Assembly (NCBI GenBank): GCA_031441465.1
Contig: JANOEP010000022.1
Span: forward strand, 1-57,189
Length of the DNA: 57,189 nucleotides
Source of the DNA: a bacterium
GTDB lineage: Bacteria > Krumholzibacteriota > Krumholzibacteriia > LZORAL124-64-63
Direction of reading: 5' to 3'
Positions 2,024 to 17,693 of the stretch are shown here, piece by piece. Position 1 is the stretch's first letter; every line of letters starts with the position of its first letter. Below the pieces are notes generated by a model. That model had not been told where the DNA came from. It did not search any database and saw only the letters and a list, made by a program, of their open reading frames with translations. The translations under genes and the position numbers were made by a program.

Positions 2024-3502
2024 ATGAGAGCCCTCGCCCTGCTGCTGATCGTGCTCGCCGCCGGCGCCGCCGGCGCCCACGAGGCGGACCCCGGCGCCGC
2101 GTCGATCACGCCGGACGGCCTGCTGGCCGACGTGCGCGCGCTGGCCGCGCCGGCGTTGGGCGGACGCCTGCCGGGGACGGCGGGCTATGCCGAGGCGATG
2201 CGCTACTGCAGCGAGAGGTTCGCCGACCTGGGCCTGGAGCCGGGCGGCGACGACGGCTGGTCGCAGCGCCTGACCATGGAACTGAACGAGATCCGCAGCT
2301 GCGAGCTGACGCTGATCGGCGCCGACGGCGTCGCCGTGCCGCTCGCCCTCGGCAGCGACTTCGCCTGCCGCGGGTTCACCGGCGCCGGCGTCGCGGACGC
2401 GCCCGTGGTCTTCGTCGGCTACGGGCTGTCGCTGCCCGAGCGGGGCCACGACGACTACGCCGGCCTCGACGTGCGCGGCAAGCTCGTGCTGGCGATCAAA
2501 CCGGCGCCCGCGTGGGAGCCCGCCGATGGGCAAGGCTGGGGCGAACTCCACATGCCGCGGCCGAAGGCGCGCGTCGCCCGCGACCACGGCGCGATCGGCC
2601 TGTTGCTGGTCCCGCACCCGGCGGCCGCACGGCCGCAACCGGCGATCGCCAGCGTGATGCACGGACCCGGCGGGCACGTGGGCGACCTGCCGCAGGCCGA
2701 GCTGACCGCGGCGGCGGCCGCGCAGCTGTGTGCGGGCGGGTCGACCGAACTGACCGGCCTGGTCGCGGCCATCGACTCGTCGAAGGCGCCGGCGTCGCGC
2801 GAGCTGCCCGGCCGCGCGCGCCTCGCGGTGGACGCCGCGTACGACCCGGCCGCCCCGACGGCGAACGTGGTCGGCGTCCTGCCCGGCACGGATCCGGAAC
2901 TGCGCGACGAGTGCCTGGTGATCGGCGGGCACCTCGACCACGTGGGCCGCCAGGGAGACGTCGTCTGGCCCGGCGCCAACGACAACGCGTCCGGAGCCGC
3001 CGCCGTCCTCGCGCTGGCCCGCGCGTTCGCCGAAGGCGGCGTGCTGCCGCGCCGCACGGTGGTGTTCGTCCTGTTCGCGGGGGAGGAGCAGGGCCTGATC
3101 GGCGCCCGCTGGTTCGTGGACCACCCGGCGCGGCCGTTCGAACGCACGATCGCCATGCTGAACCTGGACTGCGTGGCCCACGGCGACAGCATCCAACTCG
3201 GCGGCGGCGGCACGCAGCCGCTCCTCTGGGAACTCGCCCGCGGTCTGGACGCCGGGCACGCCCGCCTCTCGACCGCGCGCACCTGGCCCGGCGGTGGCGC
3301 CGACGCCGAACCCTTCCACGAGGCGGGCGTCCCGACGCTCTACTTCGCTTCCACGCCCAGCTACACGCATCTGCACCTGGCGACCGACACGCCGGAAACC
3401 CTCAACCCCATGCTGCATGCGGAACTCGCGCGCTTGGCCTTCCGCACTGCTGTTGAAATTGTGCAAGGCAGGTACGTCGGCGAAGTCACCGACGGGCCTT
3501 GA
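2024..3502 (+). CDS. Secreted M28 family metallopeptidase with PA domain (492 aa)
   Basis: GAAAGG RBS and ATG 2024, signal peptide MRALALLLIVLAAGAAGA, PA domain (VFVGYG...DYAGLDVRGK), metal-ligand motifs GGHLDH, GANDNASG, GEEQGL, LNLDC, HLATD. Confidence 0.9.
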   Translation: MRALALLLIVLAAGAAGAHEADPGAASITPDGLLADVRALAAPALGGRLPGTAGYAEAMRYCSERFADLGLEPGGDDGWSQRLTMELNEIRSCELTLIGADGVAVPLALGSDFACRGFTGAGVADAPVVFVGYGLSLPERGHDDYAGLDVRGKLVLAIKPAPAWEPADGQGWGELHMPRPKARVARDHGAIGLLLVPHPAAARPQPAIASVMHGPGGHVGDLPQAELTAAAAAQLCAGGSTELTGLVAAIDSSKAPASRELPGRARLAVDAAYDPAAPTANVVGVLPGTDPELRDECLVIGGHLDHVGRQGDVVWPGANDNASGAAAVLALARAFAEGGVLPRRTVVFVLFAGEEQGLIGARWFVDHPARPFERTIAMLNLDCVAHGDSIQLGGGGTQPLLWELARGLDAGHARLSTARTWPGGGADAEPFHEAGVPTLYFASTPSYTHLHLATDTPETLNPMLHAELARLAFRTAVEIVQGRYVGEVTDGP

Positions 3503-3602
3503 AGCGCGTTTACCACACGACACCCGGCCGGTTTGTGGTAGACTGCGCGCGGGGGAGAATATCGGATTATTAATATCATGTATAAGGTCCGAGGGGGATG
3601 AC

Positions 3603-3839
3603 ATGCCTGCCAGGATCTCGCAGGACACCATAGCCAAGGCGACTCGCTGCGCGCGCCAACACGCCTGCGTCCACGCAGGCGCCGAGTTCCAGTGCCCGAT
3701 CGAAGAGGTGGTGGGCGACTCGGTCCTCTTCGTCGTCTACGTGCCGCAGGTCACCTGCAGCTACCGGAATTCCTTCTGCGAGGGGTTCGTCTGCAGCTGC
3801 CCGGTCCGCCGCGAAGCCTGCCTCCGGCAACATCGCTGA
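3603..3839 (+). CDS. Small cysteine-rich hypothetical protein (78 aa, 8 Cys)
   Basis: GAGGGGG RBS, ATG 3603, AT-rich upstream region, coding-like GC3, C-terminal C-S-C-P-V-R motif. Confidence 0.7.
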   Translation: MPARISQDTIAKATRCARQHACVHAGAEFQCPIEEVVGDSVLFVVYVPQVTCSYRNSFCEGFVCSCPVRREACLRQHR

Positions 3840-3856
3840 CCCGCAACGCGCTGCGC

Positions 3857-5461
3857 TCAACGTCCGATCATCGCCAGCAGCCGGCGCAGGATGCCGTGAT
3901 GCTCGACCTCGGCGTCGGCCGCCGCGTCGTGCTCCTGGGTCAGGCGGTCGAGCGTCGCGCGGTTCTGGGCGGCGCGCGACGCGGCCAGGGTCGCGAGTGC
4001 CTCGGGGATCTCGTCGCGCAGGGCGAGCATCGCGCGGAACGCCGCGAGGTCGAACTCCAGCAGTTCGGCGCTCTCGCTTACCGTGACGGTGGCCGAGCGC
4101 GGCGCCCCGGTCATCAGGCTCATCTCGCCGACCACGGCGCCCGGCCCGAGCGTGAACTCGGCCGAGACGTCCGCGTCCTTCGCGACGCGCACGGCGAGCT
4201 TCCCGCGCACCACGACCTGGAACGTGTCACCCGACTCGCCCTGGACGAAGACGGTCTCGCCGTGCGTGTACCGCAGCCGCCGCACCAGCGGCGCGACGCG
4301 CGCGAGGGCCTCGCGATCCAGCAGGGGGCGACCGTCGGCGCCCACGACGAGCTTGGTGCACAGGTCGCTGCCGAGCAGGTCGTCGAGGCGGGCGGCGAGT
4401 TCGTGATCCTCGGGCTCGAGATGGCGCTGACCGTTGACGACGGTCAGGAAGTCGTTGAGCAGCTTGTCGCTCATCGGGAAGGGGATCTCGATGCCGCGGC
4501 GCTTGAACTGGTACCAGATCATCCGGTTCACTTCGCCGTCGATGAGTGAGTGCTTGTAGAACTGGGTCGTCCAGAAGTCGAGCCGGTAGTTGATGCCGAA
4601 GTCCATGAAGCCGATGATCATCGCCGCGGGCGCCGGGTTCGGCCGCACGTCCGGCACGCTGCGGGCCGCGGCCAGCAGGGCGGCGAGGACGTCGTCGGGC
4701 GCGTCGCCGTAGCTGGCGCCCACGGTGACCGAGTGGCGGCGCACCGGGTTGGGCTGCTCCATGTTGTGGATGTACGCTTCGGCGACCTTGGCGTTCGGCA
4801 CGGTGATGTAGTGGCCGGCGCGGGTGCGGACCTGGGTCTCGCGCCAGTTGGTGCCCACGACGTGGCCCTCGAGGTCGCCGATGCTGATCCACTGGCCGGC
4901 GCGGAAGGAGCCGACCAGATGCAGCGACATGCCGGCCAGCAGGTTGCCCAGCACGCCCTGCAGCGCGAAGCCGACCACCGCGGTCAGCAGGGCGGTCGAA
5001 GCCAGCAACGGCGCGATGTCGATGCCCATCTGCAACTTCATCACCGCGAAGCCGACGGCCAGCACGAACAGGGCCCGGATGATGTCCAGCAGCAGATCGG
5101 GGATCGGGAAGGCGCGCCGGCGCAGCACGTACGCCTGCACGGCCAAGCCCTCGATCAGCTCGACGGCGAGCACGCCGAGCCAGAACATCCGCCAGGCGTC
5201 GAGGTGCTGCGGCCGGGCCTGCAGCCAGGTCGCCGCCTCCGGCAGGCGGTCCAGCAGCATCAGGACGGCCTGGGTGATCAGCAGCACGGACACGGGCCGC
5301 GAGGCGCTGCCCGCCAGGCTGCGCAGCAGGTGCAGCAGCGCGGAATCGGCGCCGCGTTCGCCCCGCTTGCCGTCGCGCAGGCGCGAGGTCAGGACCGAGG
5401 CCAGACCGTAGATGGCGAGCATGACCAGGACTTCGAAGACGAACCAGGTGGAATCGCTCAC
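3857..5461 (-). CDS. MscS-family channel with C-terminal cyclic-nucleotide-binding domain (bCNG-like, 534 aa)
   Basis: GTG start after GAAAGG. MscS core VGFALQGVLGNLLAG...GIEIPFP; cNMP domain VFVQGESGD...GEMSLMTGAPRSATV. Confidence 0.92.
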   Translation of the reverse strand: MSDSTWFVFEVLVMLAIYGLASVLTSRLRDGKRGERGADSALLHLLRSLAGSASRPVSVLLITQAVLMLLDRLPEAATWLQARPQHLDAWRMFWLGVLAVELIEGLAVQAYVLRRRAFPIPDLLLDIIRALFVLAVGFAVMKLQMGIDIAPLLASTALLTAVVGFALQGVLGNLLAGMSLHLVGSFRAGQWISIGDLEGHVVGTNWRETQVRTRAGHYITVPNAKVAEAYIHNMEQPNPVRRHSVTVGASYGDAPDDVLAALLAAARSVPDVRPNPAPAAMIIGFMDFGINYRLDFWTTQFYKHSLIDGEVNRMIWYQFKRRGIEIPFPMSDKLLNDFLTVVNGQRHLEPEDHELAARLDDLLGSDLCTKLVVGADGRPLLDREALARVAPLVRRLRYTHGETVFVQGESGDTFQVVVRGKLAVRVAKDADVSAEFTLGPGAVVGEMSLMTGAPRSATVTVSESAELLEFDLAAFRAMLALRDEIPEALATLAASRAAQNRATLDRLTQEHDAAADAEVEHHGILRRLLAMIGR

Positions 5462-5493
5462 GATGTGGCCTTTCCGCGGGATCGCGTCCCCGG

Positions 5494-6327
5494 TCAGAGT
5501 TCCAGTGTCTGTCCCTGCCGCGCCGCCGCCGCTCCCGGCAGCATGCCGGTCAGCGTCGTCTCGACGGCGGCCATCGCCGTGTCGTCGCGTTCCGGAGAGT
5601 GGTGGGTCGTCAGCAGGCGGCCCGCGCCGCCGGCCCGCGCCGCCGCCGCGCAGTCGCCGAGGCTGCTGTGGCCCCAGCCGCGACGCGCGGTGATTTCTTC
5701 CTCGGTGAACTGGCCGTCCATGACCAGCAGGTCCACGGGCCGCGGCTCGCGGCAGAAGCGCGCGAAGGCGAGGCGGCCGGCCTCGTCCCAGGCCCCCCAC
5801 TCCAGATCCGTCGCGAACACGAGCGAGCCGCCGCCGCGATCGTCCAGCCGGTAGGCGGCGCAGCCGCCCGGATGCGGGACGGCGAGGTGGCGGATCTCGA
5901 GGCTGCCCCAGGCGAATGGGCTGGTGGAATTCGGCGCGCCGGCGAGTTGCCGGAACGTCACCGTCGCGCCGACCGCGTCGAGATCCAGCGGCCAAAGCGG
6001 TGGTCCCAGGAGCTTGCGCACGGCGACTTCCGCCGGCACGAAGTCCGGCGCGGCCACCGTCAGGCGCCAGCCCGGCTCGTAGAGCGGGCCCAGCGACGGC
6101 AGCCCCTGCAGGTGATCGTGATGCGTGTGGGTCAGCAGCAACAGCAACTCGCCGCCCGGGCGCGGCAAACCCTCCGCGGCGACGGTGATGCCGGTGCCGG
6201 CGTCGATGAACACGGGCGGGCCTTCGCGCGGCTCCGCCAGCAGGCACGTCGTGTCGCCGCCGTAGCGCGCGAAGGCGGGCGCGGTGCGCGGCCACGAGCC
6301 CCGCACGCCGGCGAATCGGATCCTCAT
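5494..6327 (-). CDS. MBL-fold metallo-hydrolase, candidate phosphodiesterase (277 aa)
   Basis: AGGAGG RBS. Motifs GVRGS...YGGDTTC, IDAGTG, THTHHDHLQG (HxHxDH), HPGG, ATD, WGHS, HHSP. Confidence 0.9.
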   Translation of the reverse strand: MRIRFAGVRGSWPRTAPAFARYGGDTTCLLAEPREGPPVFIDAGTGITVAAEGLPRPGGELLLLLTHTHHDHLQGLPSLGPLYEPGWRLTVAAPDFVPAEVAVRKLLGPPLWPLDLDAVGATVTFRQLAGAPNSTSPFAWGSLEIRHLAVPHPGGCAAYRLDDRGGGSLVFATDLEWGAWDEAGRLAFARFCREPRPVDLLVMDGQFTEEEITARRGWGHSSLGDCAAAARAGGAGRLLTTHHSPERDDTAMAAVETTLTGMLPGAAAARQGQTLEL

Positions 6328-6341
6328 CGCACCTCCTGCGC

Positions 6342-8477
6342 CTACTTGCTGGTCAGGTTCCAGACGCCGTCGAAGGATTCGCCGCCCGCCGCCGCCTCGC
6401 GGCAGCGGTCGGCGTAGAGTCGGGCGACGGGATCGTCGGGCAGCGCGGCGAATGCCGCGGCGGCGCCCGGCAGGTCGCCGCCGCGGCACAGCGCCAGGGC
6501 GGCGTGGAACCCGTCGCCGGCGCGCCCGTCCGTCCCGGTCGCCGGACCCAGCAATTCGAAGACGGCCACCGACTCGCGCCGTCCGACCACGCGGATCGCG
6601 CCGAGGTCGCGCACGGCGATCGTCGCGCCGGCGGCGGCGCGGGTCACCCCCGAGATCATCGTCGCGGTGCCGAAGGCCTTGTTGGCGCCCTCCAGCCGCG
6701 AGGCCAGGTTGGCCGCGTCGCCGAGCACGGTGTAGTTGAAGCGCTGCCGCGAGCCCATGTTGCCGACGACTACCGGCCCGGTGTGCAGGCCGACGCGCAT
6801 GCGCAGCTCGTGGCCGGTGCGCGCGCGGAACTCGTCGCGCCGGGATGCCAGCTTCTGCTGGCAGCGCCAAGCGGCGTGGCAGGCGCGCGCGGCGTGATCG
6901 GGCACTTCCAGCGGCGCGTTCCAGAAGGCGATGATGGCGTCGCCCTCGTACTTGTCCAGGGTGCCGCCCTCCTCGAGCACGATGTCGGTCATGTCCGTCA
7001 GGAAGTCGTTGAGCAGCTCGGTCAGGGCCACCGGGTCCAGGGACTCGCTGATGGAGGTGAAGCCGGCCAGGTCCGAGAACATGATCGTCAGCTCGCGGCG
7101 CTCGCCGCCGAGGCGCAGCTGGCCGGGGTCGGCGATGAGCCGTTCCACGACGTGCGGGCTGAGGTAGTGGCGGAAGGCCTGCTTCAGGAAGCGCCGCTGG
7201 CGGCCCTCGGTGGCGTAGTTCCAGACCAGGCCGCCGGCCAGCGCGCTCGCCGTCGCGATCCCCGCCGGCACCACCGGAAACCACCAGCCCAGCGCGTAGG
7301 CCCCGGCCCCGAGCAGCGGCGGCAAGGCGAGCGTCGCGACGATGACGGCCAGCCCGTGCCAGGCCTTGCGGCCCGCCAGCACGAGCGCCGCGGCGGCGAC
7401 CGCGAGCAGCGCGATCGTCGGCCAGGCCGCCGCCGCCGGCGCGTCGCGCAGGAACCCGTCGCCCCGCAGGTCGTCCAGCACGGCGGCGTGCAGCGCCACG
7501 CCGGGCGCGACCCGGCTCAACGGCATCGGGCGCAGGTCGAGCAGGCCGGGGGCGCTGTAGCCGAACAGGACGTCGCAGCCGCGCAGGACCACCGGGTCGA
7601 TCACCGGCTCGCCGCCTTCCCGCAACCGCAGTTCGGACTGGATGATCGCCGCGGCGCTGAAGGTCTCGTGGATGTCCGCCGGTCCGGCGAAGCGCAGCAG
7701 GGCGCGACCCTCGGCGTCCAGGGTCACGGCGCGCTCGCCGACCAGCAACCGGCCGGGCTCGAGCTTCAGCGCGGCGCCCCGGCCCTCGCCCAGCAGGTAG
7801 GCCGCCAGCCCGAACGACGGCACCGGCCGGCCGTCGAGCAGGTGCAGCAGGCGCGCTCGCCGGTACACGCCGTCGGGATCGGGCACGCCGCTGACATTGG
7901 CCAGCGCGCCCTCGCCCGCCGCGGCCTCGGCGACCGGGACCGTGGCGCCGCCCGCGGCGAGCTCCCGCCGCAACTTCGCCGTCGCCGGATCGTCGAGCCC
8001 GGCGCAGGTCCAGTCGTCGGCGCCCGGCCCCCAGCCCGACTGGTCCGCCGCGCCGGCCGCGCCGGTTCCCTCGCCCGGCGAGAGGAAGACCGCACCCACG
8101 AACCCGGGCGTGCGCGCCATGGCGGCGCCCAGGGCCGCGTCGTCCTCGACCCCGTAGACCGAGGGCTCGGTGAACAGCACGTCGAAGGCCACGGTGCGCG
8201 CGCCGCCGCGGGTGCAGAAGTCGAGGACCGGGGCGTAGACTTCGCGCGGCCAGGGCCACGACCAGCCGTTCTCCCGGCTGCCCCAGTCCAGGCTGGCCTG
8301 GTCGAGCAGGATGAGCTTGATGGTCGGGGTGGCCGCCGAGGGGGCGGCGGCCGCGCGGACGCGCCACGACCAGGCGGCGCGCTCCCACGCATCCAGGACG
8401 CCGACGGCCCAGAGCGCCGCCGCCAGCGCGGCGGCGCCCAGGCCGATCAGCAGGGCCGGACGCGCGCGTCGGCCCAT
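6342..8477 (-). CDS. CHASE2-domain class III adenylate cyclase (711 aa)
   Basis: CHASE2 motifs WPWPR, DVLF, DPDGVYR, followed by three TM helices. Catalytic domain FSDLAGFT, DKYEGDA, GLHTG, YTVLGDAANLASRLE. Confidence 0.95.
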   Translation of the reverse strand: MGRRARPALLIGLGAAALAAALWAVGVLDAWERAAWSWRVRAAAAPSAATPTIKLILLDQASLDWGSRENGWSWPWPREVYAPVLDFCTRGGARTVAFDVLFTEPSVYGVEDDAALGAAMARTPGFVGAVFLSPGEGTGAAGAADQSGWGPGADDWTCAGLDDPATAKLRRELAAGGATVPVAEAAAGEGALANVSGVPDPDGVYRRARLLHLLDGRPVPSFGLAAYLLGEGRGAALKLEPGRLLVGERAVTLDAEGRALLRFAGPADIHETFSAAAIIQSELRLREGGEPVIDPVVLRGCDVLFGYSAPGLLDLRPMPLSRVAPGVALHAAVLDDLRGDGFLRDAPAAAAWPTIALLAVAAAALVLAGRKAWHGLAVIVATLALPPLLGAGAYALGWWFPVVPAGIATASALAGGLVWNYATEGRQRRFLKQAFRHYLSPHVVERLIADPGQLRLGGERRELTIMFSDLAGFTSISESLDPVALTELLNDFLTDMTDIVLEEGGTLDKYEGDAIIAFWNAPLEVPDHAARACHAAWRCQQKLASRRDEFRARTGHELRMRVGLHTGPVVVGNMGSRQRFNYTVLGDAANLASRLEGANKAFGTATMISGVTRAAAGATIAVRDLGAIRVVGRRESVAVFELLGPATGTDGRAGDGFHAALALCRGGDLPGAAAAFAALPDDPVARLYADRCREAAAGGESFDGVWNLTSK

Positions 8478-8480
8478 GGG

Positions 8481-9389
8481 TCAGACGTCGCCGACGGCGC
8501 GCGTGAAGCGCGCGCGCCGCGCCGCGGGATCCGCCATGACGGGCTTGTTCGCCAGCGACGGGTCGAGCGCCCCGATGCGGTCGCCCGGCGAGGGGTGCGT
8601 CTTGCCGAAGCCGGGGCCGCCCGACTTCACGCGCTCGCCCATCTTCACGAGCATCACGACCAGCGCGCGCGGGTCGTAGCCCACGCGCCCGAGGATCGCG
8701 AGCGACGCCTCGTCGGCCTCCTTCTCCAGGCCGCGGGCGTAGCCGTTGTTCACGAGCGTCTGGGTGACGTCCATGATGCTGCCCTCGAAGTCCGCGGTGA
8801 GCTGCTTGAGGTCCTCGTCGCCGAGGTTGCGCGCCGCTTCGACCGTGAGGATGGCCAGCGCCGAGGTCAGCCGGCTCTTCTTGATGGCGCGCAGGCCGTG
8901 CTTGGCCTGCACGTGGCCGATCTCGTGGGCCAGCACCGCGGCCAGGGCGTCCTCGCTCTCGCAGCAGCGCACCAGGCCGCGGGTGACCAGCACCAGGCCG
9001 CCGGGGGCGGCGAAGGCGTTGACCTCGTCGCTGTCCAGCAGCAGGAAGTGGTAGCCGCCGAAGGTCTGGGGGCGGTCCGAGGCCATGGCCAGCGACTGGC
9101 CCAGCTCGTTCAGGTAGGCGTTGGCCGCGGGCTCGTCGGCCGCCGGGTAGGTCTGCAGGATGGTCGCCGCGACGGCGCGGCCGATGTAGTACTCCTGTTC
9201 CGGCGTGATGTCGGCGAAGGTCTTCTCCAACGCCTCGGCGGAGCGGTTGATCGAGGTGGCCTGCTCCTCGGTGATGGCGCCGGAGCCCTGCCCGAGCTGC
9301 GTGCCGAGCTTGGTCACCGAGGCGCAGCCGGCGATCAGCGCGGCGAGCAGCAGCAGGGCGGCGGGGAGGGTCATGGTGCGCTGTTTCAC
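8481..9389 (-). CDS. M48 family zinc metallopeptidase, lipoprotein (302 aa)
   Basis: Lipobox LIAGC. Motifs VNAFAAPGG, LAHEIGH (HExxH), EKEAD, THPS. The GTG start overlaps the upstream stop. Confidence 0.92.
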   Translation of the reverse strand: MKQRTMTLPAALLLLAALIAGCASVTKLGTQLGQGSGAITEEQATSINRSAEALEKTFADITPEQEYYIGRAVAATILQTYPAADEPAANAYLNELGQSLAMASDRPQTFGGYHFLLLDSDEVNAFAAPGGLVLVTRGLVRCCESEDALAAVLAHEIGHVQAKHGLRAIKKSRLTSALAILTVEAARNLGDEDLKQLTADFEGSIMDVTQTLVNNGYARGLEKEADEASLAILGRVGYDPRALVVMLVKMGERVKSGGPGFGKTHPSPGDRIGALDPSLANKPVMADPAARRARFTRAVGDV

Positions 9390-9874
9390 TGGGCACCCCC
9401 CTTCGCGACGACCTCGCCGGCGGCGAGGAAGGCCACGGCCTGCTCGGGCGCGACGACCATCGCCTCCATGCGGTCCACCCAGGCGTAGTCGGCGTCGGCG
9501 TTCTGCGCCTTGTACTCGCCCTCGACCTGCTCGTTGAAGCCCTTGCCGGCCAGGGCGATCTCGTCGCCGCCGGCGCCGGCGGCCACGTCGGTGCTCCCGG
9601 ACTTCAGCACCACACGCTTGGTCGTCAGCGCCGATTCGTGGATCCAGCCGCTGCGGCCGCGCGCGTCCTTGACGCTGTACCAGGCGCCCTGCTTCTGGAC
9701 CACTGTCAAGCGGTCGCCGTAGGCGACGCTCGCCGCGACCTTGCCCAGGTAGGAGGGGGTGGCCCGGAGCTGCCCCGCCCGCACTTGCACGCTCATCTGT
9801 TGCACGGCCGCCCATGCCGCGACCCCGACGACCAGGACCGCGACCAGCAGCAGGCTCCGACGCATCGTCCGCAT
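9386..9874 (-). CDS. Secreted SH3b-like domain protein (162 aa)
   Basis: GAGGGG RBS, signal peptide, SH3b-like LRATPS...GDRLTV...GAWYSV...SGWIHES, C-terminal EIALAGKGF segment. Confidence 0.85.
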   Translation of the reverse strand: MRTMRRSLLLVAVLVVGVAAWAAVQQMSVQVRAGQLRATPSYLGKVAASVAYGDRLTVVQKQGAWYSVKDARGRSGWIHESALTTKRVVLKSGSTDVAAGAGGDEIALAGKGFNEQVEGEYKAQNADADYAWVDRMEAMVVAPEQAVAFLAAGEVVAKGGAQ

Positions 9875-10073
9875 CGCATCCCCCTCGCTCGTCGGTGGCG
9901 CAGGCGCGCGGCGTGCGCGCCGCGGGCGATCGTACCACCGAAGCTGCGGCGCGCCAACGGCCTTCCTGGCCCGCCGCCGCCGCGGACGCCCGCAACAACC
10001 GGCCCGCGGGCGCGTAGGGAATGGCCGATCGGGTCCGCACGGACCCCGGCCCCACGCCAACGAAAGTCAGGCC

Positions 10074-12323
10074 ATGCGCACGACGCTCCCGCTCGCCGCC
10101 CTGCTGTTGTGCCTCGCCGCCGCTCCCGTCCGGGCCGTCGCGGACGCAGAGTTCATCCCCGTGTACCACCCCCAGCTCGAGACGACCCGTGCCGCCGGTC
10201 CCATCACGATCGACGGCGTGCTCGACGACCCCGGCTGGCAGGGCATCCCCCGCGCGGACAACTTCGCGGAACACAGCCCCGGCGACCAGGTGCAGCCGCC
10301 GGTCGACACCTACGCCATGGTCACCTACGACGACGCCCATCTCTATGTCGCCTACGTCTGCTTCGACGACCCGGCGCTGGTGCGCGCCGGCCTGAGCGAG
10401 CGCGACAACATCTGGTCCGACGATTACGTGATCACGGCCATCGACACCTACGCGTCGCAGACCTGGGCCTACGAGATCGCCTGCAACCCGCTGGGCGTGC
10501 AGGGCGACCTGCTCTGGTCGGCCAACGGCGGCGAGGACATGAGCTACAACATGGTGTTCGCCAGCGCCGGCAAGGTCACCGACGAGGGCTGGCAGGTAGA
10601 GTTGGCCATCCCTTGGTCGAGCCTGCGCTTCCCTGACCGCGACGAGCAGGCCTGGCGCATCGACTTCTGGCGCAACCACCCGCGCGCGGTGCGGGGCCAG
10701 TACTCGTGGGCGGCCTACGACCGCGACGAGAGCAGTTGGCCCTCCCAGTGGGGCACGGTGCGCGGCATCCACGGCGTGAAGCCCGGCAAGGGCATCGAGC
10801 TGCTGCCGTCGCAGGTGTTCACGCAGGCCGGATCTCGTCGGGGCGACGGCTTCGACAACGGTCCCGTCCTGGGCCAGGCGTCGCTCGGCGCGCGCGCGAA
10901 CCTCTCGTCCAGTTTCACGGTCGAGGGCACGGTCAACCCCGACTTCAGCCAAATCGAGTCCGACGCGGCCCAGATCGACGTCAACACCACCCTGGCCCTG
11001 TTCTTCCCTGAGCAGCGGCCCTTCTTCCAGGAGGGCAGCGACCTGTTCCAGACCTACTTCAACGCGGTGTACACCCGCACGATCAACGACCCGTTGTTCG
11101 CCGCCAAGGTCACCGGCCGGCCCGGCAACACGAGCGTGGCCTACCTGGTCGCGCGCGACGAGATCTCGCCGTTCATCCTGCCGTTCGAGGACGTCAGCGC
11201 GTTCGCCGCCGGCGGCCGCAGCACCACGAACATCCTGCGCGTCCAGCAGGCCCTGGGCGACGGCGCCAGCGTCGGCGTGCTGGCCACCGACCGCCGCATC
11301 GACGGCGGCGGCGCGGGCACCCTCGGCGGGATCGACGGCCGCGTGCGCTTCACGCCCTCGCTGCAGTTCGAGTGGCAGGCGCTGGCCTCGCGCACCGAAG
11401 AGCCCGACGACGCGGCCCTGACCGACGGGCTCGAGGGTCTGACCTTCGACCGGGGGAAGCACACGGCGATCTTCGACGGCGAGACCTTCGACGGGCTCGG
11501 CTTGTACTCCGGCCTGGAGTACAACGACCGACTCTGGGAATTCGAGACCGAGTACCGGTCCTTCAGCCCCACCTTCCGTGCCGAGAACGGGTTCATCCCG
11601 CGCAACGACCGCCGCGAAGCGGTCACGTCGGCCTCGCGGGTGTTCCGCTTCGACGATTCGCGGCACCTGGAGTGGATCCGGCCCCATGTCAACGCCGGTC
11701 GTGTCTGGAACATGGCCGACGCGCGCAAGGACGAATGGGTCTGGGCCGGGGTCGGCACGCGCCTGCGGCACTCGCAGATCTTCTTCCAGGTTTCGCACAT
11801 GGAGAGCAACGAGCTGTTCCGGGATATCTGGTTCGACGGCATCGAGGCGACGGAATTCGACCTCCAGGCCGTGCCCGCCAACGCGCTGCAGGGAGGGTTG
11901 TCCCTGAGCCACGGCCACCGCATCGCCAGGCGGGAGCGGGTCATGGGCCGCGAGACCAACGCGTCGCTCTGGTTCGAGATTCGCCCCGCCGACCGTCTCC
12001 TGGCAGAGGTGAGCTGGCGCTGGATCCAGAGCGTCGACGACGAGACCGAAGCCATGCTGTTCAAAGGCTTCATCCTGCGCAGCCGCTTCGGGGTGCAGGT
12101 CTCGCGCGAGTTGGCGCTGCGCCTGGTGGTCCAGTACGACGACTTCGACGAAACGTGGGAGGCCGACCCGCTGGTCACCTACCGGCTCAACCCCTTCAGC
12201 ATCTTCTACGTCGGATCGACCCGCGACTACGCCCCGCTCGACCCCGACCACGACGGCCTGCGCGACTGGCGCCTCACCGACCGCCAGTACTTCATGAAGC
12301 TGCAGTACCTCTTCCAGATCTAA
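10074..12323 (+). CDS. CBM9-like / DUF5916-type outer-membrane-associated protein (749 aa)
   Basis: Signal peptide, IDGVLDDPGW, YDDAHLYVA, WQVELAIPWSSLRF, TVNPDFSQIESD, FFPEQRPFF.EG, C-terminal KLQYLF. Confidence 0.8.
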   Translation: MRTTLPLAALLLCLAAAPVRAVADAEFIPVYHPQLETTRAAGPITIDGVLDDPGWQGIPRADNFAEHSPGDQVQPPVDTYAMVTYDDAHLYVAYVCFDDPALVRAGLSERDNIWSDDYVITAIDTYASQTWAYEIACNPLGVQGDLLWSANGGEDMSYNMVFASAGKVTDEGWQVELAIPWSSLRFPDRDEQAWRIDFWRNHPRAVRGQYSWAAYDRDESSWPSQWGTVRGIHGVKPGKGIELLPSQVFTQAGSRRGDGFDNGPVLGQASLGARANLSSSFTVEGTVNPDFSQIESDAAQIDVNTTLALFFPEQRPFFQEGSDLFQTYFNAVYTRTINDPLFAAKVTGRPGNTSVAYLVARDEISPFILPFEDVSAFAAGGRSTTNILRVQQALGDGASVGVLATDRRIDGGGAGTLGGIDGRVRFTPSLQFEWQALASRTEEPDDAALTDGLEGLTFDRGKHTAIFDGETFDGLGLYSGLEYNDRLWEFETEYRSFSPTFRAENGFIPRNDRREAVTSASRVFRFDDSRHLEWIRPHVNAGRVWNMADARKDEWVWAGVGTRLRHSQIFFQVSHMESNELFRDIWFDGIEATEFDLQAVPANALQGGLSLSHGHRIARRERVMGRETNASLWFEIRPADRLLAEVSWRWIQSVDDETEAMLFKGFILRSRFGVQVSRELALRLVVQYDDFDETWEADPLVTYRLNPFSIFYVGSTRDYAPLDPDHDGLRDWRLTDRQYFMKLQYLFQI

Positions 12324-13284: not shown

Positions 13285-15744
13285 TTACTTCGTCGCCCCA
13301 CCCAGCAGACCCCGCAGGCGGGCGCGCGCGCTCGCCCCGGCCTGAGCGGCCGTGCCGCGGGCGACGTCCTGCAGGGCCGCCGCCACATCGAGCTGGACCG
13401 AGGGTTGGACCAGGGTGCCGCCGACCCGCAGGGGCACGACCAAGCGCTCGGTTGCGGTGTTGCCGCCGCCGCCGAGCAGGCCGGTGACCTTGCCGACCAC
13501 ACCGCCCGGATTGCGCAGCTTGCGCGAAAAATCGTCGCTCAGCAGCAGGCCGCCCGCGGCGTCCAGCTCGCCGGTGAAGGCGTAGCCGCCGGCGAAGACC
13601 AGCTCGCCGAGGTCGCCCAGCTTCGTGGCGAGCGTGTCGAGCCCGACGCGGCCGTCGCGCACCACGATGTGCGCGGCGAGGGTGCGCAGGGCCTGGTTCT
13701 CGGCGAAGGAGCCGCCCGCCTTCGTCGCCACCGCCGACAACGCCGCGTGCACGGGGCCGCGGGTGGCGACGCGGCCCTCGTCCATCCGCGCGCCCGCGTC
13801 CAGGGTCAGCGTGTTGCGCACCGTCGCGCCGTCGCGGCCGGCGGCGCCGTAGGTTCCCGACAGGTCGAACTTGCCGAACAGCAGCCCCTTCAGGGGCGTG
13901 AAGCGCGACAGGAAGTCATCGGCCTCGATGCGCGTCGCCGCGAAGCGGCCGCCGAAGGCAGGGCGGTTCAGGTCGTTCAGGTCCACGGTCGTGTTGCCGG
14001 TCACCTTGCCGGTGTAGACGTCGGCCGCCACGTCGGCGACCTCGAGGCGGCGGTCGATCAGGCGCGCGTTGCCGGTCACGCCGGTGAAGGCGACCCCGCC
14101 GTACAGCAACGAGTCCGCGCGCAGGGTGCCCGTGCCCCGCAGGTCCGGCAGCCGGGCGGTCAGCGAGTCGCGCGGGGCGGGAGCCGGCGCCCCGCGCTTG
14201 ACCCAGGCGGGGCTGGCGGCGGGGAAGACCCGGTCGACGTCGAAGCGTCGCGAGCGCGCGGCGAAGGTCAGCACGGGCCGGCGCGCCGCATCGGCGGCGA
14301 GGGCCGCGAAGGGGTCGGTGACGCGGCCGGTCAGGGTCACGTCGCTGCGGCCGAAGCGGGCGACGCAGCTGGAGATCGTCACCGCGTCGGGAGCCAGGGC
14401 CAATTTCGCGTCCAGCGAGGTCAGCGGCTCGCCCAGCATCGCGTCGCGGTAGGTCATCCGCGAGACGACGACCTCGCCGCCCCGCAGCAGCCGTTCCGGC
14501 TGTTTCGTGGAGCCGTCCAGCTCGACGCGCACCGCGAGGTTGCCGGTGATCGCAGCCCGGCGTTCCGGCGGCAGGAAGGGCTGCAGGTAGGCCAGGTCGA
14601 TCTCGCCGCTCAGGGTCCCGCGCAGTTGCGGTTCGGCGAAGCGCGTCACCGTGAAGTCGCCCTGCAGCGGACGACCGCCGAACGACGCCCGCGTGAGCGC
14701 GACGTGCAGGCTGTCGGGCCGCAGGTCGGCCCTGGCCGATGCCACCCTCAATTCGCCGGGCAATTCCCCGCCGCTCATGACCAGGTCCGTCAGCCCGGCG
14801 GTCGCGGTGTAGGCGGGCGCGCGTCCGGTTTCCAGACTCGCGTCGGCCTCCACGACGACGTCGCCCGCGAGGCTGTAGGCGGCCAGGGCCGCCCGGCGGT
14901 CGGCGGGCAGCAGGCCGAGCAGGTCGGCGGCGGTGATGCGGTCCGAGACCAGACGCCCGTGCGCCACGACGGCGCCGTCGCGGCGGGCGAAGTCTCCCGC
15001 CAGCTTGAAGCGCAGCGGTCCTGCGGTCAGGGCGGACTCCGCGAGCGTGAGCAGCGCGGCGGCCCGGTCGTACGCGAGGTCGAATTGCAGGGCGACCGGC
15101 AGCACCGGCAAGGGCGCTGGCCCCGCCACGCGCAGGCTGTCGACGGTCAGGTCGCCCCGGGCCACACTGCGCCCCGCCGCGTCGGTCGCCAGGCTCGCTT
15201 CGAGGCGAAGCCCGGCCAGCCGCGCGCCGGTGCCCGCGGCCTGGTCGTCGAAGGTGAGCTGCCCGTCGACGATGGAGATGCGGTCGAGCGCGATCGCCGG
15301 GGGTGCGCCGCCGGCGCCGCCCTTGCCGTCGCCATTCCCGCTCGCGGGGGGCGCGAAGGTGAAGTTGTCCGTGCCGTCGGCCCGACGCTGCAATCTCAGC
15401 TTGGGCCCGGAGACCACCAGACGGTCGGCCTCCACGCGGCCGCGCAGCAGCGGCGGCAGGCGCAGCCGCAGGTCCACGGCCGCGACCGTGGCCAGCGGTG
15501 CGCCCCCGAAGCCCGGCGGGTTGCCGAGGCGCACCCCCTGCAGGCGCACGCCCAGCCCGCCGCGCAGCGACAGGCGGGCCTCGTCGATGACGACTTCGCG
15601 GCCCAGGGCCGCGGACGCGCGCGCCGCGACCAGGCTCTTGATCCTGCCGACCGGGAAAAAGATCAGCACGCCGGCGACCAGCAGGACCAACGCGCCGGCG
15701 ATCACGATCAGGAGCCGCGGCGGGGATTTCCGTGTGGTGTTCAT
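13285..15744 (-). CDS. AsmA-family protein (819 aa)
   Basis: N-terminal anchor helix, ASAALGREVVI, LRLPPLLRGRVE..L...P.LRLQR.ADGTDNF, beta-rich body, C-terminal VPLRVGGTLVQP. Confidence 0.85.
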   Translation of the reverse strand: MNTTRKSPPRLLIVIAGALVLLVAGVLIFFPVGRIKSLVAARASAALGREVVIDEARLSLRGGLGVRLQGVRLGNPPGFGGAPLATVAAVDLRLRLPPLLRGRVEADRLVVSGPKLRLQRRADGTDNFTFAPPASGNGDGKGGAGGAPPAIALDRISIVDGQLTFDDQAAGTGARLAGLRLEASLATDAAGRSVARGDLTVDSLRVAGPAPLPVLPVALQFDLAYDRAAALLTLAESALTAGPLRFKLAGDFARRDGAVVAHGRLVSDRITAADLLGLLPADRRAALAAYSLAGDVVVEADASLETGRAPAYTATAGLTDLVMSGGELPGELRVASARADLRPDSLHVALTRASFGGRPLQGDFTVTRFAEPQLRGTLSGEIDLAYLQPFLPPERRAAITGNLAVRVELDGSTKQPERLLRGGEVVVSRMTYRDAMLGEPLTSLDAKLALAPDAVTISSCVARFGRSDVTLTGRVTDPFAALAADAARRPVLTFAARSRRFDVDRVFPAASPAWVKRGAPAPAPRDSLTARLPDLRGTGTLRADSLLYGGVAFTGVTGNARLIDRRLEVADVAADVYTGKVTGNTTVDLNDLNRPAFGGRFAATRIEADDFLSRFTPLKGLLFGKFDLSGTYGAAGRDGATVRNTLTLDAGARMDEGRVATRGPVHAALSAVATKAGGSFAENQALRTLAAHIVVRDGRVGLDTLATKLGDLGELVFAGGYAFTGELDAAGGLLLSDDFSRKLRNPGGVVGKVTGLLGGGGNTATERLVVPLRVGGTLVQPSVQLDVAAALQDVARGTAAQAGASARARLRGLLGGATK

Positions 15745-15770
15745 GCGGACAGGATGCCTCGCCTCCGCCC

Positions 15771-17693
15771 TCAGCGCAACAGGAGCGTCCGGTTGGCGGG
15801 GTCGGCGTCCTCGAGCAGCAGGGCGCGCAGCTCGGGCCAACGTGCCGGCGGCACCTCCCCGGCCGCGACCGACAGCTCGCGTTTGACGACCACGCGCCCG
15901 CCGTCGCGCTCGACGCGCAGGCTGAAACGGCCGGCCGCGTTGACGACCTCGCGGTCCGGCGGCAGGTGTGCGAATTCGCGGTCGCCGGGGGACAGGGTCG
16001 TCCGCACCCGCTGGACCAGGGAGCCGGGCAGCAGCACCGCACTGCTGCGCGATTCCTCGTACAGGTGGACGTCGGCCGGCAGCAGGGACGCCAACCCGCC
16101 GAGCGGATCGCCCACGGTCAGGCGCAGACGGTCGAAGTCGTCCGCTTCGTCCTCGGGAACGTTCGCGGTGAAGCCGTAGGTCACGGCCTCGGGCCGGAAC
16201 GTCGCGGGGTTGGAACCGGCGACCGTGGCGCCGGCGAACACCGACGCGACCACGGCGCCGAGGTGGCCCTGCGCGTCGCCGTCGAGCCCGGCCATCCGGT
16301 CGTGGGCCGAGAACAGCCCGTCGGTCCGGAGGGATCCCGCGCCGCACCAGCCGCCGCTGTCCGAGGGCGCGAGCGTGATGTCGAAGGCGAACAGGTTCGC
16401 GACGGTCGCCTCGCCGTCCGGTCGCTGGATGAGGCCCGATCCACCGAGCAGCGGGCCGGCGAACGCGGACGGCGACTCCGTGAGTTTCCCTTTGCTCGGA
16501 TCGTAGAACGCGCCCAGGCCCGCGCCCGCGATCTCGAGGAAGGGGCCGTCGAATTCCGCCGCCGCCGGCACCTGCGGGTCGACGGGCCGGCCGCCGCGCG
16601 CGCGGTAGCGGAGTGCCGCCGTCAGGCCGGCGCCCCGGAACAGGGCGGCCGCCAGGACGGCGCGATCGCTGCCGTGCCCGTAGGCCGTGTCCCAGGTGCG
16701 TTCGGGCCGGCGGGCTGCGGCTCGCCACGGGCGGTCGTCGACGTGGACGGACCGCACCCCCTCCTCGAGCAGCTTCACGACGGCCCGGGCTTTGGACCGG
16801 TCGTCGGGCGCGTTGCCGAGGCGGGCGGCGAGGGTGTCGCGCAGGGCCGCGCCGAGCGGGGCGTCGTCGTCGAATCCCCGCGACAGCGCCGCGCCCAGGG
16901 CCTGCCAGCTATCCCAGGTCGACCACAGGACGCTGGGCGCATCGGCCGCGGGGACGGCGATCGCCGGCAGCCCGTGCTGCGGCACGTCCTCGAGACGCCA
17001 GGTCCGTGTCGTGGCCCCGTGCGCGGTGGCCACGGTCGGGGCCGGCGCGCCGCGGCGTTCCACGTGACGGACCGCGACGCCGACCGGCACGCACAGCGCG
17101 AACTCGCTCACGACCGCCGGGTCGCGCCGCGCGAAGACCCACAGGCCGTCGGCCCCGGCCTGCGCGCCGGCGCGCTCGACGATCTCGTACTCCGTCTCCA
17201 GCAGGCAGGGCAGCTCGACGCCGTCGTGCAGGAGCATGGTCTCGCGCAGGTCCGCGTAGTCGGCGGCGTACTCCAGCGCGTAGGGCAGGGTCTCGACCAC
17301 GGCGGTCGGGCTGATCGTGACCGCGTCCGGCCACCAGCGGCCGTCGCGCCAGGTGCGCAGCTTCGTCACGGCGAGGGTCGAGGTTCCGGCGTGCCAGGGC
17401 ACGCGCTGGTCGGCGTAGGCGTTCAGGCCGCTGCGCGTCGCGATCCAGACCGCCTGGTGGGTGCGCACGGCGAGGTCGCCGCCGGGCGAGACGGTCACCA
17501 GGCGCGCTTCGCACAGCAGGACGGCGTCGCGCTGCGCGAAGCCGGGCAGGGCCCGGGCGCGCGCGAGCAGGGCGTCGAGGTCGCGCCCTGAGGATGTCCC
17601 GATCGAGGTCCCGGGCGAAACGCCGGAGGTGCCGGCCGCGGCCGGCGCCGCGAGGATCGCCGCCAGGATGCAGAGCAGGAGCGTGCGCTTCAT
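15771..17693 (-). CDS. DUF3857-domain transglutaminase-like protein, probably non-catalytic (640 aa)
   Basis: Signal peptide and similarity to the upstream neighbour. The catalytic-Cys region reads YGHGSD. ATGA overlap with the upstream gene. Confidence 0.75.
   Translation of the reverse strand: MKRTLLLCILAAILAAPAAAGTSGVSPGTSIGTSSGRDLDALLARARALPGFAQRDAVLLCEARLVTVSPGGDLAVRTHQAVWIATRSGLNAYADQRVPWHAGTSTLAVTKLRTWRDGRWWPDAVTISPTAVVETLPYALEYAADYADLRETMLLHDGVELPCLLETEYEIVERAGAQAGADGLWVFARRDPAVVSEFALCVPVGVAVRHVERRGAPAPTVATAHGATTRTWRLEDVPQHGLPAIAVPAADAPSVLWSTWDSWQALGAALSRGFDDDAPLGAALRDTLAARLGNAPDDRSKARAVVKLLEEGVRSVHVDDRPWRAAARRPERTWDTAYGHGSDRAVLAAALFRGAGLTAALRYRARGGRPVDPQVPAAAEFDGPFLEIAGAGLGAFYDPSKGKLTESPSAFAGPLLGGSGLIQRPDGEATVANLFAFDITLAPSDSGGWCGAGSLRTDGLFSAHDRMAGLDGDAQGHLGAVVASVFAGATVAGSNPATFRPEAVTYGFTANVPEDEADDFDRLRLTVGDPLGGLASLLPADVHLYEESRSSAVLLPGSLVQRVRTTLSPGDREFAHLPPDREVVNAAGRFSLRVERDGGRVVVKRELSVAAGEVPPARWPELRALLLEDADPANRTLLLR

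Follow-up and report, generated by a model that had tools for sequence, protein, structure and literature searches.

A contig of the Krumholzibacteriota assembly GCA_031441465.1 (JANOEP010000022.1; the whole stretch of DNA that was analyzed, 57,189 nucleotides, is referred to below as the window) carries a tight row of five genes, and the question raised by this locus is whether the five constitute a single signaling unit. In the order of translation, they encode an exported protein with a bacterial SH3 (SH3b) domain (g1), a lipoprotein protease of the M48 family (g2), a predicted receptor adenylate cyclase with a CHASE2 domain (g3), a protein of the metallo-beta-lactamase (MBL) fold (g4) and an MscS-like channel with a C-terminal cyclic nucleoside monophosphate (cNMP)-binding domain (g5). 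Comparative analysis yields an answer in two parts. A three-gene sensory module, made up of g1, g2 and g3, is the more widespread unit, and the five-gene set is an elaboration of it that is specific to certain lineages. As for function, the interpretation toward which we lean, with modest confidence, is that of a self-contained cyclic AMP (cAMP) signaling operon, in which an envelope signal would be relayed through g1 and g2 to g3, the cAMP produced by g3 would alter flux through g5, and g4 would reset the system.

The window has a GC content of approximately 72%, and long spurious open reading frames (ORFs) are therefore common in it; the coding frames were picked out by the GC content of third codon positions, which is 0.82–0.96 across the frames of g1 to g5 and identifies all five as coding. 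The ORF coordinates agree exactly with the arrangement described in an earlier, sequence-only reading of the window, namely five genes on the same strand with junctions of −4, 3, 14 and 32 nucleotides, and Shine-Dalgarno-like purine-rich runs are found upstream of g1, g2, g4 and g5. The domains that had been named in that reading are recovered in all five proteins with scores over the respective Pfam gathering cut-offs: SH3_3 in g1 (36.6 bits), Peptidase_M48 in g2 (113.7 bits), CHASE2 and Guanylate_cyc in g3 (148.5 and 77.3 bits, respectively), Lactamase_B_2 (PF12706) in g4 (53.8 bits), and MS_channel_2nd, MS_channel_3rd and cNMP_binding in g5 (55.1, 39.7 and 60.5 bits).

The phyletic profile of the cluster was obtained from separate searches over 41 related genomes. 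The cyclase is matched in 16 of these genomes, at 53% identity or more in 13 of them, and exactly the same 13 genomes contain the SH3b protein (E ≤ 1e-5), the M48 subfamily (E ≤ 1e-30) and the MBL protein (E ≤ 1e-10); the full-length channel is present in these 13 genomes as well, with a fragment running off a contig end in one more (G018). The cluster is fixed in all seven genomes of the genus. Among the 13 loci that were compared, the five genes follow each other in the same order in 10, which are all 10 loci from the family to which the window belongs (45–94% identity); the other three, from other families, have only a 30–35% identical cyclase. Given that all 10 family loci preserve the gene order and that presence and absence are shared over the 41 genomes, the five-gene arrangement is beyond chance. 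Farther afield, nine of 80 loci anchored on the MBL gene have all five genes on the same strand, and five further loci, cut by contig ends, are consistent with it; the metagenome-assembled genomes (MAGs) that carry the full set are labeled as PVC (Planctomycetes-Verrucomicrobia-Chlamydiae) group, Verrucomicrobiota, Sedimentisphaerales, Krumholzibacteriia, Aminicenantes, Fibrobacteraceae and Eubacteriales. The claim of the sequence-only reading that the five genes behave as one unit is thus borne out by synteny across phyla, by matching presence and absence and by contigs from an RNA library that extend over all junctions.

Two of the 10 family loci, from two genera, are interrupted by a gene on the opposite strand, one by a radical-SAM gene between the M48 and cyclase genes (L025:4546-6297) and the other by an AAA-TPR gene between the cyclase and MBL genes (L030:4860-7991). 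Because of these opposite-strand insertions, the operon in the two split clusters must be transcribed in two parts.

The five genes differ in how faithfully they stay together in more distant organisms. A metagenome scan anchored on the alignment of g1 detected at least 558 relatives, and the best 80 loci, to which the following counts refer, were searched with hidden Markov models built for the purpose. An M48 gene follows the SH3b gene in all 58 loci with at least 1 kb of downstream sequence, and CHASE2 with the cyclase follows in 31 of the 33 loci with at least 3.6 kb, whereas the MBL gene is found in seven of the 26 loci with at least 5 kb and the channel with the cNMP-binding domain in six of the 23 with at least 6.8 kb. 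The triad of SH3b, M48 and cyclase genes is therefore the invariant core of the cluster, and g4 and g5 are lineage-specific additions that accompany about one in four of the triads in the scanned loci. The description of the cluster as a complete circuit, given in the sequence-only reading, accordingly makes the last two genes appear more indispensable than they are: all five genes are kept together in the family of the window, but in the metagenome loci the MBL and channel genes accompany the SH3b gene only in the minority just given; the check that had been proposed, a survey for the co-occurrence of all five genes, recovered the full order in several phyla, with the last two genes often absent. 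In the loci with the triad only, the downstream genes that were scanned are unrelated and differ from locus to locus.

Two of the 33 loci (L153:6894-15069 and L184:10001-14716) have, after the SH3b and M48 genes, large genes for AMP-binding (acyl-adenylate-forming) enzymes in place of the CHASE2 cyclase. The N-terminal parts of these AMP-binding proteins match no Pfam family.

The CHASE2 domain of the cyclase (PF05226) extends over residues 18–364 of g3 and has hydrophobic stretches on either side in the alignment, which is the layout of an extracytoplasmic CHASE2 domain placed between an N-terminal helix and a set of transmembrane helices. The catalytic domain has its nearest solved relatives in Synechocystis Cya2 (2w01, 6fht) and Pseudomonas aeruginosa CyaB (3r5g), and alignment with these structures confirms that the residues singled out in the sequence-only reading are all in place: both metal-binding Asp residues, the Lys in LDKYEGD, the Thr in LHTG, and the Asn and Arg in AANLASRLE. 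The features of class III cyclases, both metal-binding Asp residues and the transition-state Asn and Arg, are conserved throughout the 27 aligned cyclase domains, as is the Lys; Thr or Ser occupies the Thr site in 25 of the 27, including all 22 cyclases from clusters. Within these 22, five of the six key sites are identical in all sequences, and the sixth, that of the Thr, is occupied by Thr in 20 sequences and by Ser in two. The Lys of g3 aligns with a Glu in the Cya2 sequence 2w01; we take Cya2 to be a guanylate cyclase and the Lys and Thr/Asp positions to be sites of substrate specificity. Judged by these residues, g3 looks like an active, ATP-specific cyclase. In the genome, which is 96.8% complete, no other protein matches PF00211 or CHASE2, a count that covers the class III cyclases (PF00211).

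The two exported partners of the cyclase show strong conservation of their own. In an alignment of 61 g1 sequences, from which two rows (L129 and L170) were left out as their reading frames ran through a stop codon, residues E105, A107, L108, A109, K111, G112 and F113 are invariant, and all of them belong to a short motif in the linker between the SH3 barrel and the C-terminal domain. In the AlphaFold2 (AF2) model of g1, the predicted local distance difference test (pLDDT) score is 84–90 for the barrel, 81–86 for the helices at residues 115–152 and below 50 for the linker at residues 90–108, with a predicted template modeling score of 0.41. Because the motif is invariant and yet lies in a linker predicted to be flexible or disordered, the linker is a candidate docking or cleavage site, and alignment and model together suggest that residues 104–113 are the docking or cleavage motif itself. 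In g2, all 20 aligned sequences share the lipobox C22 and the hallmarks of M48 proteases, namely the HExxH motif with H155, E156 and H159 and, farther downstream, the Glu ligand E222. This protease is neither BepA nor LoiP, given that it scores 111.7 bits against an equivalog cut-off of 570 for the former and 52.2 against 365 for the latter. A three-chain prediction for a complex of the periplasmic CHASE2 domain, the M48 protein and, as the partner, the SH3b protein received a score of 0.39, and a control in which the CHASE2 chain was replaced received 0.58; the result speaks neither for nor against binding.

The channel protein g5 aligns with residues 10–274 of Escherichia coli MscS (E = 1.5e-19) and differs from it in having five rather than three hydrophobic segments, the two extra ones being N-terminal. 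Its pore helix is nearly invariant across phyla in the alignment of orthologs; by hand count, Ala161 and Phe165 of this helix align with the E. coli MscS pore residues L105 and L109, which presumably form the hydrophobic lock. The GE...PRSA nucleotide cassette pointed out in the sequence-only reading is present in g5, and none of 20 channel orthologs departs from its Gly-Glu and Arg. With an MscS-homologous pore helix, cytoplasmic beta and alpha-beta domains and a cNMP-binding domain, g5 has the architecture of a bCNG (bacterial cyclic-nucleotide-gated) channel, and this composition suggests that it may be gated or tuned by cAMP. A canonical MscS paralog is encoded elsewhere in the genome, on contig C47.

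The assignment of g4 draws on its signature motif, its predicted fold and its genomic neighborhoods. The “atypical class II phosphodiesterases” Rv1339, YhfI and CpdA, members of PF12706, are defined by the motif [T/S]HxHxDH in the accessible part of PMC9293780, according to which Rv1339 hydrolyzes both cAMP and cGMP; the same two nucleotides are given as the preferred substrates of YhfI in the accessible part of PMC9117128. The MBL fold of g4 carries exactly this signature, with H67, H69, D71 and H72 invariant in 128 family sequences. No match to PF02112, the canonical class II phosphodiesterase family, was found in g4 at E ≤ 0.01. Thus, the class II phosphodiesterase assignment proposed for this gene from the sequence alone is retained as regards the phosphodiesterase branch, with a signature of the Rv1339/YhfI/CpdA type, and abandoned as regards the canonical class. 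In a Foldseek search with the AF2 model of g4 (pLDDT 96.5), the top structure is Bacillus subtilis YhfI (6kns, E = 3.4e-15), to which g4 is approximately 20% identical in the structural alignment; RNase Z (1y44) is nearly equal (3.9e-15), and yeast PDE1 and Apyc1 are ranked lower. On the strength of motif and model, g4 likely belongs to the phosphodiesterase branch of the MBL fold and would then hydrolyze cAMP. The family around g4 comprises 1,978 representatives at E ≤ 1e-30. Neither g4 nor any of the 128 family members reaches the cut-off of an NCBIfam model, and the family is therefore unnamed; the model for cyclic nucleotide-degrading phosphodiesterases, NF041851, is matched by 115 of the 128 members, all of them below the cut-off (best E = 6.1e-23).

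The genomic neighborhoods support a cyclic-nucleotide role for the MBL branch near g4. A gene for a cyclase or a cNMP-binding protein lies within 1 kb in 25 of the 80 MBL-anchored loci and within 5 kb in 33. Relatives with 30–38% identity to g4 adjoin such genes, at a distance of 1 kb or less, in Roseibium, in Selenomonadaceae and in loci labeled as Actinomycetota, and in Selenomonadaceae and an Actinomycetota MAG the MBL gene directly follows the cyclase gene. Furthermore, six of 11 long members of the MBL family are fused to signaling domains (PycTM in three, and REC, PilZ and PAS in one each).

The fusion proteins are P0062, P0081, P0093, P0117, P0141 and P0146; in the PycTM fusions, the MBL domain occupies the place where Pycsar effectors normally have their cNMP-binding domain. 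A compact arrangement unlike that of the window occurs in MAGs and isolates labeled as Pseudomonadota, including Roseibium (L047, L076, L086, L102, L104 and L106): a small cNMP-binding gene ends approximately 50–70 nucleotides before the MBL gene, and a class III cyclase gene is located 0.75–2.5 kb downstream. A 39% identical MBL gene of a Verrucomicrobiota MAG (L042:6905-10840) comes after a CheA-like gene (HATPase_c, CheW, Hpt, P2).

Taken together, these features can be arranged in the following chain, which is the reading we favor. The g1 and g2 proteins would form an obligatory sensory triad with the CHASE2 cyclase g3 and inform the periplasmic CHASE2 domain of the condition of the envelope, most likely by way of the invariant linker motif of g1, as a site of cleavage or docking. 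The cyclase would turn this envelope input, whatever its nature, into cAMP; the nucleotide would bind the C-terminal cNMP-binding domain of g5, so that the channel opens or is modulated and the flux of ions or solutes changes, and hydrolysis of cAMP by g4 would restore the initial state. A bolder version of this scheme, which we think unlikely, casts SH3b and M48 as the missing signal-input device of a large CHASE2 clade: the protease would act on, or be held by, the linker of a wall-anchored g1, regulated proteolysis would translate the condition of the peptidoglycan or envelope into activation of the cyclase, and g4 and g5, in the loci that have them, would add a fast, non-transcriptional path from the envelope via cAMP to ion flux, with g4 as its dedicated reset enzyme.

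Several observations weigh against such a self-contained chain. The triad occurs without g4 and g5 in 14 of the 23 g1-anchored loci with at least 6.8 kb downstream; two MAGs with the triad or the cyclase together with the MBL gene have no cNMP-MscS gene anywhere in the assembly; and in one MAG, of Verrucomicrobiota, the channel and MBL genes are on different contigs. In its accessible part, a 2026 review (PMC13591265) leaves the physiology of bCNG channels and the role of cNMP in their gating unexplored and notes the lack of any structure. Besides g5, two Crp-family regulators of the genome score over the cut-off for cNMP-binding proteins, which makes three such proteins in all. There may be another receptor, even a more important one than the channel, because one of the two Crp-family genes (G000:C49:50666-51397) is almost confined to cluster-bearing genomes: at E ≤ 1e-25 it is present in all seven genomes of the genus and in G015 and G018, that is, in nine genomes that bear the cluster or probably do so, and it is matched weakly in one other (G038); its product may be a second cAMP receptor. 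With respect to transcription, a promoter and terminator scan recognized neither element for the operon, with no sigma-70-like site in the 199 nucleotides upstream of g1; its output consists of one promoter-like site within g3 and one terminator-like site on the opposite strand, neither of them informative. Contigs from metatranscriptome run X17 (records 2, 3, 6 and 7), which derive from a relative with approximately 88–95% identity, bridge all four junctions and are only a hint of joint expression, as DNA carry-over is possible, there is no silent control stretch and contigs cannot show a single transcript.

The missing or separated g4 and g5 genes, the Crp-family gene and the unsettled physiology of bCNG channels would all be accommodated if the cluster combined two modules: the triad would be a general sensor with a mainly transcriptional output, through a Crp-family or another regulator, the channel would be gated by tension and tuned by cAMP, and g4 and g5 would be optional passengers. 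We treat this alternative as a serious, if doubtful, one. It leaves unaccounted for the joint retention of the five genes in 10 of 10 family loci, which have diverged to as little as 45% identity (up to 94%) and follow one pattern of presence and absence, and the conservation of the cNMP cassette of the channel across phyla; the separate canonical MscS paralog on C47 is available for ordinary osmotic protection, and at E ≤ 1e-25 the C49 Crp-family gene is not found in five of the 13 cluster genomes.

The second Crp-family regulator is also present in cluster-free genomes. Two copies of its gene in genome G004 (G004:C30:33315-33989 and G004:C31:9131-9664) have one or two in-frame TGA codons and may be pseudogenes or assembly errors.

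The reset step of the favored chain depends on g4, and this protein could instead be an RNase Z-like enzyme or another hydrolase of phosphodiesters or sulfate esters, with a role, for example, in RNA processing or in the turnover of another metabolite. RNase Z models and structures score as high as the phosphodiesterase ones or higher. The profile of the 128 family members, when compared with solved structures, ranks RNase Z first (5.1e-22), followed by BA1088, ELAC1 and YhfI (3.3e-17 for the latter) and then, more weakly, by PhnP, yeast PDE1 and Apyc1, and a search of solved structures with the single g4 sequence yields marginal matches to RNase Z only (best E = 0.0027). The score of g4 is slightly higher with the RNase Z model (34 bits) than with the phosphodiesterase model NF041851 (30.1 bits against a cut-off of 400). 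A search of the 96.8%-complete genome for an RNase Z over the TIGR02651 cut-off came up empty, the sole weak match being g4 itself, at 21 bits, and 47 of the 80 MBL relatives, mostly labeled as Solirubrobacterales, are without a gene for a cyclase or a cNMP-binding protein within 5 kb. However, the RNase Z score of g4, 34.4 bits, covers the C-terminal part only and amounts to approximately one tenth of the cut-off of 292.95, and g4 is unlike a housekeeping tRNA enzyme because none of the 28 cluster-free genomes among the 41 relatives contains it. In several phyla the gene sits between the cyclase and the cNMP receptor, which in the window genome are the only cyclase found and the channel, respectively; its relatives elsewhere adjoin cyclase or cNMP-binding genes or are fused to signaling domains; and its signature motif and top Foldseek match are those of YhfI, which prefers cAMP and cGMP according to the available part of PMC9117128. 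An activity other than cyclic-nucleotide hydrolysis therefore appears rather improbable, and we retain g4 as the candidate phosphodiesterase of the chain.

Finally, the sequence-only reading had raised the alternative of a Pycsar- or CBASS-like system, that is, abortive infection in which the cyclase would sense a phage, the nucleotide would open a killing or arresting pore and g4 would prevent self-activation, and this we consider very improbable: the pairing of a cyclase with a downstream membrane effector that binds cNMP, the matches of the cyclase domain to PADLOC PycC models (best 115.9 bits) and of the cNMP domain to those of PycTIR effectors, the PycTM fusions among the g4 relatives and the patchy distribution among related genomes speak for it, but the PADLOC matches are limited to the generic catalytic and cNMP-binding domains, with g1, g2 and g4 matching nothing, an MscS channel takes the place of the effector, the sensor has a periplasmic domain and exported partners, a phosphodiesterase candidate is part of the operon, the cluster is fixed in all seven genomes of the genus, and the flanking genes are metH and genes for an M28 peptidase, a CBM9/DUF5916 protein and an AsmA-family protein, with no defense island or mobile element. 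Pycsar cyclases make pyrimidine nucleotides, whereas the Lys and Thr of g3 are substrate residues of the purine (ATP) type.

Several characterized systems resemble parts of the cluster. The bCNG channels are cyclic-nucleotide-gated homologs of MscS (Caldwell 2010 and Malcolm 2012, as cited in PMC13591265), and g5, like them, combines a pore helix and vestibule of the MscS type with a C-terminal cNMP-binding domain whose phosphate-binding cassette is intact. However, the bCNG family is described as mostly cyanobacterial in the accessible part of PMC13591265, whereas g5 occurs in lineages of the FCB (Fibrobacteres-Chlorobi-Bacteroidetes) and PVC type, and it is encoded together with a presumed cyclase and phosphodiesterase. 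In Sinorhizobium meliloti, as described in the accessible part of PMC13001267, the CHASE2 cyclases CyaD1, CyaD2 and CyaK operate with NsrA, an outer-membrane protein, and with the regulator Clr; common to that system and the cluster are a CHASE2 class III cyclase, cAMP as the (here presumed) messenger and a separately encoded envelope protein for signal perception. In the cluster, an SH3b protein and an M48 lipoprotein take the place of the beta-barrel as accessory proteins, an ion channel takes that of the Crp-type regulator as co-encoded receptor, and the candidate phosphodiesterase belongs to the same operon. The “BiofilmReg” operon of Burkholderia encodes a response regulator, a LysM-FecR periplasmic protein and a CHASE2 histidine kinase, according to the accessible part of PMC5192318; here too, a CHASE2 sensor is encoded beside a periplasmic partner with a domain of the peptidoglycan-binding type, but that partner is LysM-FecR in place of SH3b and M48, the output is a two-component kinase in place of a cyclase, and the operon has no protease, phosphodiesterase or channel. 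With Rv1339, YhfI and CpdA, g4 has in common the PF12706 fold and the [T/S]HxHxDH motif, YhfI being its top structure in the Foldseek search, almost level with RNase Z, and it differs from them in belonging to an unnamed family of its own, with low identity to YhfI and scores below all curated cut-offs. A literature search that covered few subscription journals found no published description of the triad, of the five-gene set, of CHASE2 with M48 and SH3 proteins, or of a bCNG channel with an adjacent cyclase.

The signals sensed by CHASE2 domains are described as unknown in the accessible part of PMC5192318, the NsrA route of S. meliloti being the only one described in the literature consulted, and the question gains defined partners now that SH3b and M48 genes are seen to precede the cyclase almost without exception. 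The function of bCNG channels likewise becomes testable with a channel that is encoded together with a presumed cyclase and phosphodiesterase, and genetics and biochemistry can center on one operon because g3 is the only class III cyclase found in the genome and is co-encoded with the channel. The cluster also gives a functional context to the large unnamed MBL family. In the bolder and unlikely version of the chain, the route from envelope to cAMP to ion flux would parallel, in bacteria, the eukaryotic pathway in which a cyclase, a cyclic-nucleotide-gated channel and a phosphodiesterase work together.

Table. Features of the five-gene cluster and of its upstream surroundings, in positions of the window; residue numbers refer to the respective protein, and junctions are given relative to the preceding gene.
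Feature	Positions	Strand	Description
g1, exported SH3b-domain protein	9386..9874	minus	162 amino acids, ATG start; signal peptide, SH3 barrel, linker, three-helix C-terminal domain
g1 linker motif E[LV]ALAGKGF	9536..9565	minus	residues 104-113; most conserved stretch of the protein
g2, M48 zinc-metalloprotease lipoprotein	8481..9389	minus	302 amino acids, GTG start; 4-nucleotide overlap with g1; lipobox Cys22; third ligand Glu222
g2 HEIGH motif	8913-8927	minus	residues 155-159
g3, receptor adenylate cyclase (predicted)	6342..8477	minus	711 amino acids, ATG start; 3-nucleotide gap after g2; transmembrane helices
g3 periplasmic CHASE2 domain	7386-8426	minus	
g3 class III catalytic domain	6573-7094	minus	
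g4, MBL-fold phosphodiesterase candidate	5494..6327	minus	277 amino acids, ATG start; 14-nucleotide gap after g3; H152, D174, H220 and H242/H243 conserved
g4 THTHHDH motif	6112-6132	minus	residues 66-72
g5, MscS-like channel with C-terminal cNMP-binding domain	3857..5461	minus	534 amino acids, GTG start; 32-nucleotide gap after g4; five hydrophobic segments
g5 pore helix	4913-5011	minus	residues 151-183
g5 cNMP-binding domain	4022-4276	minus	
g5 phosphate-binding cassette	4088-4129	minus	G445-T458
Presumed operon promoter region	9875..10073		199 nucleotides between g1 and the divergent CBM9/DUF5916 gene; placed by gene arrangement only
CBM9/DUF5916 gene	10074-12320	plus	divergent; secreted protein
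AsmA-family gene	13288-16728	minus	farther upstream of the cluster

The five-gene block is bounded upstream by the divergent CBM9/DUF5916 gene and downstream by a convergent M28 peptidase gene, which itself comes after the 3′ part of metH. Among the six neighboring genes that were scanned, no mobile-element or defense genes were seen, and an Rfam scan of positions 3300-10400 at E ≤ 0.1 gave no match. The two sequencing runs that contain the whole stretch are labeled as freshwater sediment metagenomes and may be its source; 18 further runs contain only 6–14% of the sampled words, and those of them that were not aligned provide no evidence of habitat. The nearest public MAG loci carry FCB-group labels, namely Fibrobacteraceae (on the contig matching G016) and Krumholzibacteriia.

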